Origin: Thermoplasmata archaeon
Lineage (GTDB): Archaea; Thermoplasmatota; E2; JACPAO01; JAHFTW01
Assembly: GCA_023269235.1 (NCBI GenBank)
Contig: JAHFTW010000002.1
Location: 119,294-183,293 of the forward strand
DNA length: 64,000 bases
Direction of reading: 5' to 3'
Shown: positions 20,638 to 23,659 of the stretch, in pieces
How the letters are laid out: every line of letters starts with the position of its first letter
Position numbering within the stretch: position 1 is the stretch's first letter
Notes under the pieces: model-generated
Seen by the model: only the letters and a program-made list of their open reading frames with translations
Database searches by the model: none
Told to the model about the DNA's origin: nothing
Program-made: the position numbers and the translations under genes

Positions 20638-20919
20638 GTGCCCCATCTCACCCTCGTGAACCAGGAACTTGTCGCTGACGACCGTGGCCGCGTCACGCTT
20701 CCCCCGGACATGCGCAGGCGGCACGGCCAGCGCTACATGGCCATTGACACCCCCGACGGAATCCACCTGTTCCCCATCCCGAAGCGCGGCGACACCCAAT
20801 GGCTCGGCAAGCCGATCCCGTCGTCCGAGTACCGCCGCGTCGCCATGGAAGCGGCCGAGAAAGAAGTGGAGGACGAGCTCCGCACCATCCATGGGGTGAA
20901 ACGTGGTCGGAAGCGCTGA
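20638..20919 (+). CDS. vapB: AbrB/SpoVT/MazE-fold antitoxin (VapB-like)
   Basis: GRVTLPPDMRRRHG swapped-hairpin motif. Overlaps the downstream PIN gene. Confidence 0.65.
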   Translation: MPHLTLVNQELVADDRGRVTLPPDMRRRHGQRYMAIDTPDGIHLFPIPKRGDTQWLGKPIPSSEYRRVAMEAAEKEVEDELRTIHGVKRGRKR

Positions 20920-21271
20920 CGCAAACCTGCTGCTTGCCGCCGTGGACCCGCAGGACGCCCTCCACGCGCGAGCCCGCAGCCACATCCATGCGCATGGACG
21001 CCTGCGCGCCTCCGTTCCCGCCGTCCTCGAGGCGTTCATCGTGCTGCGCCGTCGTGGCGCGAGCCTGCAAGCCCTGGTCGCCCGCCTCAATGAGCACTTT
21101 GACCTGGACGACGCCGGCAGCCTCCAAACGGCCGCATGGGCCCTCGACAAAGGCCTCCTCCGAACGCCCTTCGACGCCTACCACGCCGCCGACGCCCACC
21201 GACGCGGCGAGCCTCTCCACACCGCCGACCAGGAACTCCTCGCCTCGGCGTTCCCGACCATCGCCTACTGA
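20903..21271 (+). CDS. vapC: PIN-domain toxin (VapC-like)
   Basis: Acidic residues in a PIN-like arrangement (LLLAAVDPQD ... D...). 17-nt overlap with vapB. Confidence 0.6.
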   Translation: MVGSADANLLLAAVDPQDALHARARSHIHAHGRLRASVPAVLEAFIVLRRRGASLQALVARLNEHFDLDDAGSLQTAAWALDKGLLRTPFDAYHAADAHRRGEPLHTADQELLASAFPTIAY

Positions 21272-21389: not shown

Positions 21390-21473
21390 GCCAACGTCGC
21401 TCAATCCGGTAGAGCAGCGGTCTTGAAAACCGCCGTCCGCAAGGATTTCCAGGTTCAAATCCTGGCGTTGGCG
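21390..21473 (+). tRNA. tRNA-Ser (anticodon TGA), class II with long variable arm
   Basis: Manual fold: acceptor GCCAACG/CGTTGGC. D stem GCTC/GAGC. Anticodon stem GCGGT/ACCGC with loop CTTGAAA. Long variable arm. T arm CCAGG-TTCAAAT-CCTGG. Discriminator G. Confidence 0.8.
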
Positions 21474-21522
21474 CTTGGGTTGATCGGCAGATCTATGGAT
21501 CTCGGCACCATCGTTTTGGACG

Positions 21523-22047
21523 ATGAGTCGCCGGGCTTCTTACCAGAAGACTCGGTCGAACAATCAAACTGAAGATGAGGCGTTGTTGGTTGTCTTACGC
21601 GCCGACCCCAGAATGCAACTGGTGAATTCCAAGACGCGCAATCGTCTCCTCGACCTTCTGGGACTTCGACCGGGTTTCAGTAGCCGCGTGTTTGACCTCA
21701 TCCGAACCAACTCTGTAGCTCCGGCGCTTGACGAATCTAACATTCACGAACATTTGGACGGCCTTGTTCTTGTTGAGGTCAAAGCCACTCAAGCGCCCAT
21801 CGTCGATTCGTCTCTTCATGGGTTCTTTTTTGGGGCAACCGAGAATGAGTACAAAATTGCGAAGCAACTTGGAGCGGCCTATTGTTTCGCGTTCGTGGTC
21901 CTTCGACCTGCGGGGGGCGGCAAACCTTTCCACGTTCTCTTGGACCTCGATGAAGTTGAGCGCCGCACACAGACCAAGCGAACGCAGTTTCAGGTGAATT
22001 TCAAGTCGGCCCGTCAAGGTGGTGTTCCCCCTGGACCTAAGCCTTGA
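21523..22047 (+). CDS. DUF3883-like PD-(D/E)xK nuclease-fold protein (low-GC islet gene 1)
   Basis: HEHLDGLVLVEVKAT ... FFFGATENEYKIAKQLGAAYCFAFVV resembles the DUF3883 core and C-terminal helix. Codon usage is markedly lower in GC than its surroundings. Confidence 0.5.
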   Translation: MSRRASYQKTRSNNQTEDEALLVVLRADPRMQLVNSKTRNRLLDLLGLRPGFSSRVFDLIRTNSVAPALDESNIHEHLDGLVLVEVKATQAPIVDSSLHGFFFGATENEYKIAKQLGAAYCFAFVVLRPAGGGKPFHVLLDLDEVERRTQTKRTQFQVNFKSARQGGVPPGPKP

Positions 22048-22807
22048 CCCCCGCCCCGGTGAAGGATACCGAAGCGCCAGCCAATGGGCCCGTCGCGTAA
22101 CTGAGAATTGGGCCGCGCGTGAATTGTACTGTTGGGGATGCCAGTCCCCACATCTTTCCGCGCACGCGACCAACACCAGCGTCGAGGATTACCGTTGTCC
22201 GTCTTGCTCTCGACGCGTTCAAGTCAAGGCGAAAAACGGGCCAATCGGGAAGACGGTTGCCAACTCAGGCTACGAAGTAAAACTTCAGGCCATCCGGAAA
22301 AATGTCGCACCAGACTATGCGTTCATGTCGTACAGCCGAACCGATTTGGCCGTCGAATCATTGTTCGTTGTTCCCGGTTCGTTTCTCTCTCAATCTGTAA
22401 TTTCTCCGCGTACGCCTTTGAGCGCGACTGCTCGGCGTGCTGGCTGGGTCGGCTCGAATATTCATCTGGACCGCATTCCGGCGTTTGGGAAAATCGTCGT
22501 GATTGCCGACGGAGCCGCACGTCCCAAGGTGCAGGTCCGCAAAGATTTCTCACAGATTGGATTTGTCGGGTCCTTCCCTCAAGAGCAGCGTGGTTGGCTT
22601 GGGGATGTCCTTTCTTGTTTGGAGAAGCTTGACCTCACGTCCGGAAGTTCATTCCATCTTGGCGACCTCTACGCATTCGAGGATTCCCTGCGTCGCCTGC
22701 ATCCAACGAACAACAACATTCAGCCAAAAATTCGGCAGCAACTCCAAGTGTTGGAACGGCAAGGAATTGTTCGCCGTCTCCGCCCGGGACTGTTCCAAAA
22801 GGTTTGA
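22019..22807 (+). CDS. DpnI-like (Dam-replacing family) methyl-directed type IIM restriction endonuclease: Zn-ribbon + PD-(D/E)xK + C-terminal winged helix
   Basis: YCWGCQSP...YRCPSC zinc ribbon. GYEVKLQAI (ExK). SATARRAGWVGSNIHLDRIP and KIRQQLQVLERQGIVRRL closely recall DpnI segments (TARRAGWIG..., IRQQLQIL...). Low-GC codon usage. Confidence 0.6.
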   Translation: MVFPLDLSLDPRPGEGYRSASQWARRVTENWAARELYCWGCQSPHLSAHATNTSVEDYRCPSCSRRVQVKAKNGPIGKTVANSGYEVKLQAIRKNVAPDYAFMSYSRTDLAVESLFVVPGSFLSQSVISPRTPLSATARRAGWVGSNIHLDRIPAFGKIVVIADGAARPKVQVRKDFSQIGFVGSFPQEQRGWLGDVLSCLEKLDLTSGSSFHLGDLYAFEDSLRRLHPTNNNIQPKIRQQLQVLERQGIVRRLRPGLFQKV

Positions 22808-23035
22808 CTCCACCCCGGCAAAGCGATTTCGTTGCCGTTTCCATCTGAGTCGCATGAGCTACCGGCCGCTGGTGCCGCAGGTTGTTTGTCCGTGTGGGAG
22901 AAAAATTCCTCGTCGAAGTCTTGCGTTGACGGAGCCTGATACGGGGAGTTACCGGGGCGCCATATGGCAATCAGGTTGCTCCTGCGGACGTTCCCTGACG
23001 ATTGAAATTGCGGACGACCCCGAATATCCTTCCGA

Positions 23036-23659
23036 CTAGTCGCCCTGCTTCTTCGCCCTTGGTCCCGGCACAAAATTCCACACGGCGACCTGCGCGAACT
23101 CTTCCTCGTTCCAACCGACCGCGGACACGTTGCCGTAGTCCTGCGCGAACGCGAACGTCTGGACGTAGGGCAGTCCAAGGGAGTGGGCAAGGATCGCGCG
23201 GCTCACGCCCGCGTGACCGAACAGCGCAATCGTGCGTCCCTTGAACTCGTCCCGCAGTTTGTCCAAGCCGTCGGCGACGCGCTTCTGGAACACGCTGCCG
23301 GATTCTCCGCCGGGGGCCGCGTGGGCCATGACGTCACCCTGCCAGGCCTCTGCGTGGCCGGGGGAGTGCGCGAGGATTTGGGGCCAGAACAGGCCGTCCC
23401 ATTGGCCGAAGTCCATCTCCGCGAAGGCGGGCCGGACGGTGAGCGTCATGCCCTTGGCCTTGGCGAGGGGGGCGGCGGTGTCGAGGGCGCGGCGGCGCGG
23501 GCTCGCCACGATGGCGTCCAGCTCCGCCTCCTCGAGGTAGGCGGCGATGGCTTGGCCCTGGTGGCGCCCCAGGTCGGAGAGGGCGACGTCGGTGCGGCCG
23601 ATGAAGGCGCCGACGAACTTCGCCTCCACCTCGCCGTGTCGCATGAAGAACAGCCGCAC
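23036..23659 (-). CDS. Histidine phosphatase-family protein (phosphoglycerate mutase-like)
   Basis: FFMRHGE catalytic RHG motif. ...LFGHAGV... second His. Confidence 0.8.
   Translation of the reverse strand: MRLFFMRHGEVEAKFVGAFIGRTDVALSDLGRHQGQAIAAYLEEAELDAIVASPRRRALDTAAPLAKAKGMTLTVRPAFAEMDFGQWDGLFWPQILAHSPGHAEAWQGDVMAHAAPGGESGSVFQKRVADGLDKLRDEFKGRTIALFGHAGVSRAILAHSLGLPYVQTFAFAQDYGNVSAVGWNEEEFAQVAVWNFVPGPRAKKQGD

Follow-up and report, generated by a model that had tools for sequence, protein, structure and literature searches.

Here, we analysed a 64,000-nucleotide stretch of a Thermoplasmata archaeon genome (contig JAHFTW010000002.1, positions 119,294 to 183,293 of the forward strand), the whole of which is called the window below, and focused on a low-GC islet directly downstream of a tRNA-Ser(TGA) gene. 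The islet carries three open reading frames (ORFs), ORF1, ORF2 and ORF3. We regard it as fairly probable that it is a restriction operon lacking a methyltransferase, in which ORF2 is a DpnI-type effector and ORF1 an independent nuclease, and that it was anciently acquired and has been vertically inherited. Its features and neighbours are listed below by window position.

21475-23035, no strand assigned: low-GC islet, GC 0.55, GC content at third codon positions (GC3) 0.55-0.58.
21482-21501, plus strand: GATCGGCAGATCTATGGATC, three GATC sites 8 bp apart; likely core promoter and candidate methylation-sensitive or protein-bound operator.
21489-21502: palindrome AGATCTATGGATCT.
21523-22047, plus strand: ORF1, 174 amino acids (aa), predicted stand-alone PD-(D/E)XK-fold nuclease, a remote DUF3883/NOV_C relative.
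22019-22807, plus strand: ORF2, 262 aa, DpnI-family type IIM protein (Pfam, PDB, PADLOC), GTG start at 22019 or 22022.
22854-23039, plus strand: ORF3, 61 aa, Cys4 (CxC..CxC) zinc-ribbon-like mini-protein (conservation in relatives).
21390-21474, plus strand: tRNA-Ser(TGA) (ARAGORN; Rfam tRNA 60.3 bits), the landmark directly upstream of the cassette.
23036-23659, minus strand: convergent His_Phos_1 gene (Pfam E 2e-47), whose stop codon is the end of the islet.
20638-21271: VapB-like and PIN (VapC) gene pair on the other side of the tRNA-Ser gene (Pfam).

An earlier description of this islet, made without database searches (the original prediction), had the identity of ORF2 right and that of ORF1 roughly right; its catalytic motif was wrong, and it overstated how recent the islet is and how closely the two genes are paired. 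Its sequence blocks were all found in the translations (CWGCQSP..CPSC, TARRAGWVGSNI, KIRQQLQVLERQGIV, VEVK and ENEYKIA..AYCFAFVV), as were the two overlapping genes at 21523-22047 and 22019-22807, whose reading frames share 29 nt, but a third conserved gene at 22854-23039 had been overlooked.

On profile evidence, ORF2 is a genuine DpnI-family protein. It matched the Pfam DpnI profile (PF06044) with 168.4 bits (E 1.7e-49, cut-off 26.7) at profile positions 2-180 of 183, and the DpnI_C winged-helix profile (PF17726) with 73.5 bits (E 1.6e-20, cut-off 23) at positions 1-70 of 70; the DpnI similarity claimed for the second gene is thus confirmed over its full length, including the Zn site and the winged helix. 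Residues 14-261 aligned with the sequence of the R.DpnI crystal structure (PDB 4esj) at full length (E 2.2e-49), and PADLOC returned a match to mREase_II (E 2.8e-57). The protein is laid out as an N-terminal PD-QxK catalytic domain (E29, D57, Q68 and K70), a Zn site and a C-terminal winged helix. When the published functional residues of DpnI (PMC3424567, PMC4117772) were mapped on an alignment of ORF2, DpnI and 120 homologues, C38, C41, C60 and C63 of ORF2 aligned with the DpnI cysteines of the Cys4 zinc site (two CXXC), the DpnI base contacts S17, Q18, N48 and R126 and methyl-pocket residues L129, R135, W138 and G140 were identical in ORF2, and equivalents of the winged-helix residues K229 and R231 were kept.

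The catalytic E25, D53 and K66 of DpnI correspond to E29, D57 and K70 of ORF2, and E64 of DpnI corresponds to Q68, which gives ORF2 the catalytic motif D57..Q68-V-K70 (PD-QxK). The ExK originally taken for the nuclease motif, E86-V-K88, aligns with a non-catalytic stretch of DpnI. Glutamine occupies the E64 position in 117 of the 121 aligned close homologues and can therefore hardly be regarded as a lesion of ORF2; QxK-type DpnI is the family majority among close homologues, and none of these appears to have been characterised. The three bacterial DpnI genes that are linked to an ORF1-like gene carry ELK. A PD-QXK catalytic variant has been described for Mrr-type domains (PMC11037411). A catalytically dead ORF2 was considered and set aside, Q being the majority state and PD-QxK a known variant. 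Given this, and the conservation of the zinc, base-reading and methyl-reading residues, ORF2 is predicted to cleave in a Gm6ATC-dependent manner. Such a restriction module in an archaeon, paired with a DUF3883 partner, had been thought unusual. The DpnI identity stands, but DpnI-domain proteins of Thermoplasmatota already carry that annotation at NCBI, and m6A-dependent enzymes from archaea have already been characterised (PMC11037411); a DpnI-like gene alone adds little, since such genes are annotated in Thermoplasmatota metagenome-assembled genomes (MAGs).

We propose that ORF2 would act as a monomeric DpnI-type effector, whose catalytic domain and winged helix would both read fully adenine-methylated GATC, and that it would cut inside GATC through its PD-QxK active site. 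The GATC sites of the host are presumed not to be N6-methylated, and DNA from Dam-type methylating donors (viruses, plasmids and invading restriction-modification (R-M) systems) would be cleaved for that reason. The ORF list of the islet contains no DNA methyltransferase gene. Within the window, neither a Dam-like gene nor a DPPY-type methylase ORF was found; an approximate Dam query gave only a spurious match of 52 aa, antisense to a gene for an Fe-S oxidoreductase. According to a survey of archaea, Thermoplasmatota have no persistent methylase, and several further archaeal groups have Dam-like orphans (PMC10609329), which could be donors of methylated DNA. GATC occurs 106 times in the window against 214 expected under a Markov model (ratio 0.49; 0.44 for CTAG), and it is similarly under-represented in related Thermoplasmatota contigs (L001, L012 and L030; compared loci are numbered with an L). 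Similarly GC-rich Actinomycetota loci hold 8-14 GATC per kb.

ORF1 would be a second, separately evolving PD-(D/E)XK nuclease. Its structure model was confident and showed a PD-(D/E)XK fold, with the D..ExK motif and the motif of the following helix present, and the conserved positions F57-D58, L83-x-E85-x-K87-x-T89, G100-FFFGAT-xx-E109 and R153-x-Q-x-Q-x-N159 form a PD-(D/E)XK pattern; a Foldseek search against the PDB returned nothing significant. The DUF3883 signature proposed for this gene held in so far as the nuclease fold and a weak DUF3883 affinity were found, but the match to the Pfam DUF3883/NOV_C profile (PF13020) scored 14.8 bits (E 0.031), below the cut-off of 22.1. Weak NOV_C matches were obtained for 18 of 22 aligned family members, with a best E of 9e-5. 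Judged by these scores, the DUF3883 label is reasonable for a remote relationship and falls short of formal membership. ORF1 matched nothing in NCBIfam or PADLOC. Some members of its family from Flavobacteriia are named NO VEIN C-terminal (NOV_C) by UniProt, and all are hypothetical proteins at NCBI.

A word-indexed search of 5.8e9 proteins gave 21 relatives of ORF1, and an exhaustive profile search of 1.84e9 cluster representatives gave 330 family matches at E <= 1e-3. The family is nearly always stand-alone, at 100-200 aa with few longer members; among the 330 representatives, the longer ones contained no extra Pfam domains, and no fusion that would reveal a partner was found. ORF1-like genes were not found in IMG/VR, among the INPHARED phages or among the PLSDB plasmids. 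A relationship of ORF1 to DpnD was rejected, as no family member had a Pfam DpnD-family match. One cluster of ORF1-like proteins (L088 type, at least 90% identity) spans the Flavobacteriia genera Pontimicrobium, Polaribacter, Jejuia, Winogradskyella, Hwangdonia and Crocinitomix, a breadth that points to recent horizontal spread of a form linked to a helix-turn-helix (HTH) gene.

To place ORF1 among its neighbours, 80 genome loci with ORF1-like genes and, separately, 80 diverse DpnI loci were sampled. The original prediction of a DpnI and DUF3883-like pair did not hold as an obligate one: only one of the 80 DpnI loci had an ORF1-like gene, DpnI directly follows an ORF1-like gene in about 5% of the loci sampled for the latter, and in one relative of the window (L003) DpnI has been deleted. 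The neighbours of ORF1-like genes include NERD (L006-8, L040 and L041), GmrSD (L021), HNH (many Actinomycetota loci), a PDC-S36/NOV_C protein (L009), a MvaI/BcnI-like enzyme (L079) and a DUF2075/Schlafen-type helicase (L047). HNH, NOV_C and MvaI-like partners lie upstream of the ORF1-like gene, and DpnI, NERD, GmrSD and the DUF2075 helicase are coupled downstream. About 30 loci, mostly from Bacteroidota, have an Xre-type HTH gene that lies upstream of the ORF1-like gene and overlaps it; in 20 loci a C5 DNA methylase stands convergent to these genes, and in 13 a double-MutH, Sau3AI-like enzyme stands divergent to them. The Sau3AI/MutH-like and C5 methylase context and the DUF2075 context have both been reported for DUF3427-DUF3883 modification-dependent endonucleases (PMC6765204). 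Given that 79 of the 80 DpnI loci have no ORF1-like gene and that L003 lost DpnI yet kept ORF1, the two genes appear to be independent. In our reading, ORF1 belongs to the restriction toolkit in its own right, is often co-opted into nuclease operons and is not a dedicated DpnI subunit. It would be linked to DNA modification or to GATC and would probably resemble type IV enzymes, as the DUF3883 domains of YenY4I and McaZI do; its family would travel with its own GATC-studded promoter beside many restriction nucleases, and in the clade of the window it would be translationally coupled to DpnI without being an obligate subunit.

Several points weigh against this interpretation of the islet. The substitution E64A abolishes DpnI activity (PMC3424567), the enzymes that have been characterised, FcyTI and Psp4BI, share about 58% identity with DpnI (PMC11037411), and no report of an assay of any Q-type (QxK) homologue was found in the literature. 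The search for Dam covered the 64-kb window alone, and the two-fold depletion of GATC is unexplained by a methyl-dependent enzyme alone. No modification-reading domain is recognisable in ORF1. Moreover, adjacency of ORF1-like and DpnI genes recurs across archaea, Patescibacteria, a gammaproteobacterium and an unassigned metagenome contig, which hints at a real functional link and not at coincidence.

An alternative is an obligate two-component system, a single complex of ORF1, the DpnI-like protein and perhaps ORF3. DpnI would read Gm6ATC, and ORF1 would carry out the cleavage or finish it, for instance by cutting the second strand or by degrading DNA once the first cut is made. We consider this unlikely, although the overlapping frames are conserved across the archaeal clade and both genes are tied to GATC. 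An ORF1-like gene lies directly upstream of DpnI not only in the archaeal L012 but in three unrelated bacterial lineages (L048 and L068, Patescibacteria; L059, Gammaproteobacteria), and the two genes are divergently arranged in L108. The DpnI-adjacent ORF1 sequences are not each other's closest relatives, and DpnI of both the ExK (ELK) and the QxK type is involved, so that the adjacency arose more than once. However, most ORF1-like loci are without DpnI, nearly all DpnI loci are without an ORF1-like gene, and L003 retains an intact ORF1 after losing DpnI. DpnI is, besides, a self-sufficient monomer (PMC4117772), and not one ORF1-DpnI fusion occurs among the 330 family representatives.

The second subject of this work is the GATC cluster in front of ORF1. 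The islet contains three GATC sites, all inside GATCGGCAGATCTATGGATC and none in the coding DNA downstream, where about 6 are expected over the islet, and the GATC-containing palindrome that had been noticed at the islet entry is present at 21489-21502. The 20-mer is near-invariant upstream of ORF1 in seven of seven archaeal loci, within surrounding non-coding sequence that is unconserved. A TATA-like TCTATGGA lies about 27 nt before the ORF1 ATG, and the distance from the T of TATGGAT to the ATG is 29 nt (range 27-30) in the archaeal loci. Since this distance fits archaeal TATA geometry, a leaderless mRNA is implied: an archaeal TATA element would drive a leaderless ORF1 transcript. The three GATC sites would form the core of this promoter, and transcription most probably begins at the ATG or close to it. 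Scans of the islet for sigma-70 promoters and terminators did not rise above chance, these models not being applicable to an archaeon.

The upstream statistics were taken from 53 non-redundant ORF1-like loci without an HTH gene. GATC density was 29 per kb at -50..0, 16.5 per kb at -100..-50 and about 6 per kb elsewhere. The 117 upstream sites compare with 36.4 expected, at least two of them being present in 38 of 51 loci, and a Poisson figure for this enrichment overstates its significance because the loci share phylogeny. GATC was the sole strongly enriched GC-containing 4-mer palindrome upstream of these genes. A bacterial form, GATCTTGATC-N17-19-GATC, recurs in Actinomycetota, Verrucomicrobiota, Patescibacteria, Elusimicrobiota, Chloroflexota and a gammaproteobacterium, and 22 of 91 loci have GATCNNGATC in the upstream 160 bp, where about 1.3 would be expected. 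TTGATC in these bacterial promoters resembles a -35 element, and TGATCTAAT resembles an extended -10. The HTH-linked loci carry a palindromic operator instead, often with a central GATC, and DpnI-only loci show a weak upstream rise of GATC and are GATC-poor within the gene. A literature search for GATCTTGATC returned primer sequences only. As a side observation, the coding regions of 80 metagenome DpnI loci (L096-L175) had 0.2-2 GATC per kb at +50..+200, the overall density being 3.9 per kb, a depletion within genes that echoes the GATC-free coding part of the window cassette.

The proteins are only 35-45% identical, yet the GATC motif is kept in both domains; the motif is therefore likely to be functional, and its conservation is hard to explain otherwise. 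The reader of these sites could be the ORF1-like protein or their methylation status. We tentatively suggest that the ORF1-like gene and its GATC-cluster promoter may form a portable module, shared between bacteria and archaea, in which the GATC sites serve as an epigenetic or operator switch. Either the ORF1-like protein might bind the GATC sites, or a foreign Dam-type methylase might alter promoter strength, and so drive a downstream nuclease; all this is a possibility that we do not favour at present. The downstream nuclease would be, just as tentatively, DpnI here and NERD, GmrSD or DUF2075 elsewhere.

A related proposal is that ORF1 is itself a GATC-binding controller, which occupies the cluster in its own promoter and sets the expression of a toxic nuclease downstream, or else that the promoter senses foreign Dam-type methylation. 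It agrees with the steep rise of GATC in the upstream 50 bp (29 against about 6 per kb), with GATCNNGATC in 22 of 91 loci, and with the persistence of GATC in both bacterial and archaeal promoter architectures. ORF1-like genes also stand first, with DpnI, NERD, GmrSD or the DUF2075 helicase coupled behind them, and loci with an upstream Xre-type HTH gene have the palindromic operator instead. However, the catalytic D, E and K are conserved family-wide, which argues for an enzyme, the HNH, NOV_C and MvaI-like partners lie upstream instead of downstream, and DNA binding by ORF1 is putative. We thus think it doubtful that ORF1 is a controller.

It is very improbable that ORF1 is an orthodox GATC endonuclease with its protecting C-methylase encoded elsewhere, which would make a double lock in which ORF1 cuts unmethylated GATC and DpnI cuts Gm6ATC. 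The two-fold depletion of GATC in the host would fit, as would the Bacteroidota layout of an HTH (C-protein-like) gene and an ORF1-like gene convergent with a C5 methylase, and a survey of archaeal R-M systems lists DUF3883 as a presumed type IIR group (PMC10609329). A C5 methylase is nearby, however, in only about 20 of 76 non-redundant loci, the Actinomycetota loci are GATC-rich with no adjacent methylase, and no recognisable DNA methylase accompanies any of the seven archaeal cassettes, although L092 has an unclassified S-adenosylmethionine (SAM)-methyltransferase-like gene. That ORF1 is a Vsr-like mismatch-repair nuclease whose presence is incidental is hardly credible, with no C5 methylase nearby in the window or in most loci, restriction nucleases dominating its neighbours and no Vsr Pfam match.

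We return to the islet as a proposed operon of an independent ORF1 nuclease and a DpnI-type effector, and to its history. The composition shift that had been predicted between the tRNA-Ser 3' end and the histidine-phosphatase gene was confirmed by computation. The islet (21475-23035, 1561 nt) has a GC content of 0.550 against a mean of 0.690 (standard deviation (sd) 0.027) for same-size segments across the 64 kb; it falls short of this mean by about 5 sd, and no other stretch of 1.56 kb in the window is as poor in GC. In 300-nt segments GC falls sharply to 0.53-0.59 from about 21350 to about 23150, with 0.65-0.75 on both sides. The drop is concentrated at third codon positions, with GC3 of 0.55, 0.58 and 0.55 in the islet genes and 0.82-0.97 in flanking genes.

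Six syntenic relatives were compared, the genome match closest to the window being L012, a Thermoplasmatota MAG. All six (L001, L003, L012, L092, L093 and L094) share the gene order AMP-binding, tRNA-Ser, ORF1(-DpnI-ORF3), His_Phos, PIN_9, aIF2-gamma and S6e, with tRNA-Ser upstream of the cassette in each. Islet genes are 52-70% identical to those of the window, and the faster-evolving flank genes are 53-75% (His_Phos) and 48-85% (PIN_9) identical; L093 is the nearest relative by its flanks and also by ORF1. In the cassettes of the relatives, genes overlap by 4-29 nt. No empty site was recovered among the six, as all have the cassette, internally deleted in L003. There, between ORF1 and His_Phos, LDPTLGAGYASR is fused to RGAVWQKSCAAAR, and this in-frame remnant (L003:751-861) joins the first ~12 DpnI codons to the C-terminal half of ORF3. 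A deletion, as read from this remnant, removed DpnI and left ORF1; ORF1 and its promoter are intact, with the third GATC mutated to GATG.

No integrase ORF was found in 21475-23035, and a search of the far border for a directly repeated copy of the tRNA 3' end gave only 15-19-mers at chance level. Among the hallmarks of tRNA-integrated islands, the location at a tRNA 3' end and the deviant composition were thus found, and an integrase or repeat and variable presence were not. Recent tRNA-targeted integration was considered and set aside in favour of ancient acquisition, with neither integrase nor att-like repeat found and the islet present in all relatives. The location of a low-GC islet beside tRNA-Ser was predicted correctly, but a recent acquisition conflicts with the same site in six relatives. 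Given the shared site, the parallel divergence and the lack of an integrase or att repeat, the islet appears foreign in composition but old and vertically maintained, its divergence roughly tracking that of the flanking genes. We propose that an ancestor of this clade of Thermoplasmatota would have acquired the operon 3' of tRNA-Ser(TGA), with vertical inheritance afterwards.

The orthologous cassettes of L001, L012, L092, L093 and L094 have a GC content of 0.49-0.66 against 0.64-0.72 in their flanks, GC3 having been computed for the window only. The cassette lacks the drift to host composition expected of an old insertion, despite protein identities of 52-70%, and a GC3 of about 0.55 held through long vertical descent in a genome of about 0.9 makes it a useful case for asking whether, and in what way, the composition of foreign genes drifts towards that of the host. 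Four relatives have a GC-rich, hairpin-rich spacer of 90-190 nt between tRNA-Ser and the GATC motif (L012:7811-7960, L092:4373-4465, L094:4358-4465 and L093:4369-4455), part of which is common to L012, L092 and L094 (GCGTCAGGGGCTGCGCCCCCGACACCCC...); the window, L001 and L003 have no such spacer.

ORF3 would be a clade-specific Zn-ribbon accessory. ORF3 and the convergent His_Phos gene overlap at their 3' ends, at the stop codon of ORF3, and orthologues of 48-66% identity directly follow DpnI in L001/2, L012, L093 and L094/95, with 22 invariant alignment columns that include four Cys. It had no Pfam, NCBIfam or PADLOC match, and its single-sequence AlphaFold2 model was unusable (predicted local distance difference test, pLDDT, 54). 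In L092 (5749-6747), the place of ORF3 between DpnI and His_Phos is taken by a 73-aa ORF and by a gene of 239 aa that resembles SAM methyltransferases (MTS weak, Methyltransf_23). The VapBC pair reported across the tRNA was found as the VapB-like and PIN genes at 20638-21271, between the AMP-binding gene and tRNA-Ser. The same pair occurs in L092 (3362-3986, 47% and 66% identity) and is absent from L001, L093 and L094, so that the upstream side of tRNA-Ser is a variable spot.

The ORF1 family, some 330 clusters annotated as hypothetical, consists of predicted, nearly always stand-alone nucleases that accompany many different restriction enzymes; with its GATC-cluster promoter it is undescribed as far as could be found, and it is the part that merits experiments. 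The conserved GATC clusters of Patescibacteria, Actinomycetota and Thermoplasmatota offer a testable lead to a new nuclease, modification-dependent or GATC-specific, or to a methylation-sensing control element. If the module proposed above were real, it would add a new regulatory logic for restriction without a methyltransferase, and the ORF1 family would be a new family of GATC-specific proteins.

Among known systems, ORF2 resembles R.DpnI of Streptococcus pneumoniae (dpnC/dpnD; PDB 4esj, 4kyw) and FcyTI in its PD-(D/E)XK domain, Cys4 Zn site and winged helix, and it shares with R.DpnI all published base- and methyl-contact residues and the lack of a cognate methylase. The genes that flank the nuclease gene have no known function, as is also the case for dpnD (PMC4471560). 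In contrast to R.DpnI, ORF2 has Q at the position of catalytic E64 (PD-QxK), resides in an archaeal host, is at most 54% identical to every DpnI-family sequence from outside its clade that was compared, and has ORF1 upstream and ORF3 downstream as partners, with no Pfam DpnD-family match. ORF1 resembles the YenY4I/McaZI group of DUF3427-DUF3883 enzymes (Lutz et al. 2019, PMC6765204) in its DUF3883/NOV_C-like nuclease core, and its family shares with that group two genomic contexts (Sau3AI/MutH-like with C5 methylase, and DUF2075 NTPases) and the setting in defence islands; it differs as a stand-alone protein of 150-190 aa, without DUF3427 or a PUA reader and with a sub-threshold NOV_C match. 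Mrr-type PD-QxK domains share with ORF2 the middle glutamine of D..QxK (PMC11037411). The likeness is limited to this motif variant, as ORF2 belongs to the DpnI family by its sequence. Promoters regulated by methylation of restriction or Dam sites are known, both as Dam-sensitive promoters and as R-M promoters that carry their own recognition site. The islet resembles them in having GATC sites inside the core promoter of a restriction-related gene. It differs in that regulation is putative and no methylase is linked, and in that the GATC cluster is kept with one small nuclease family across bacteria and archaea.

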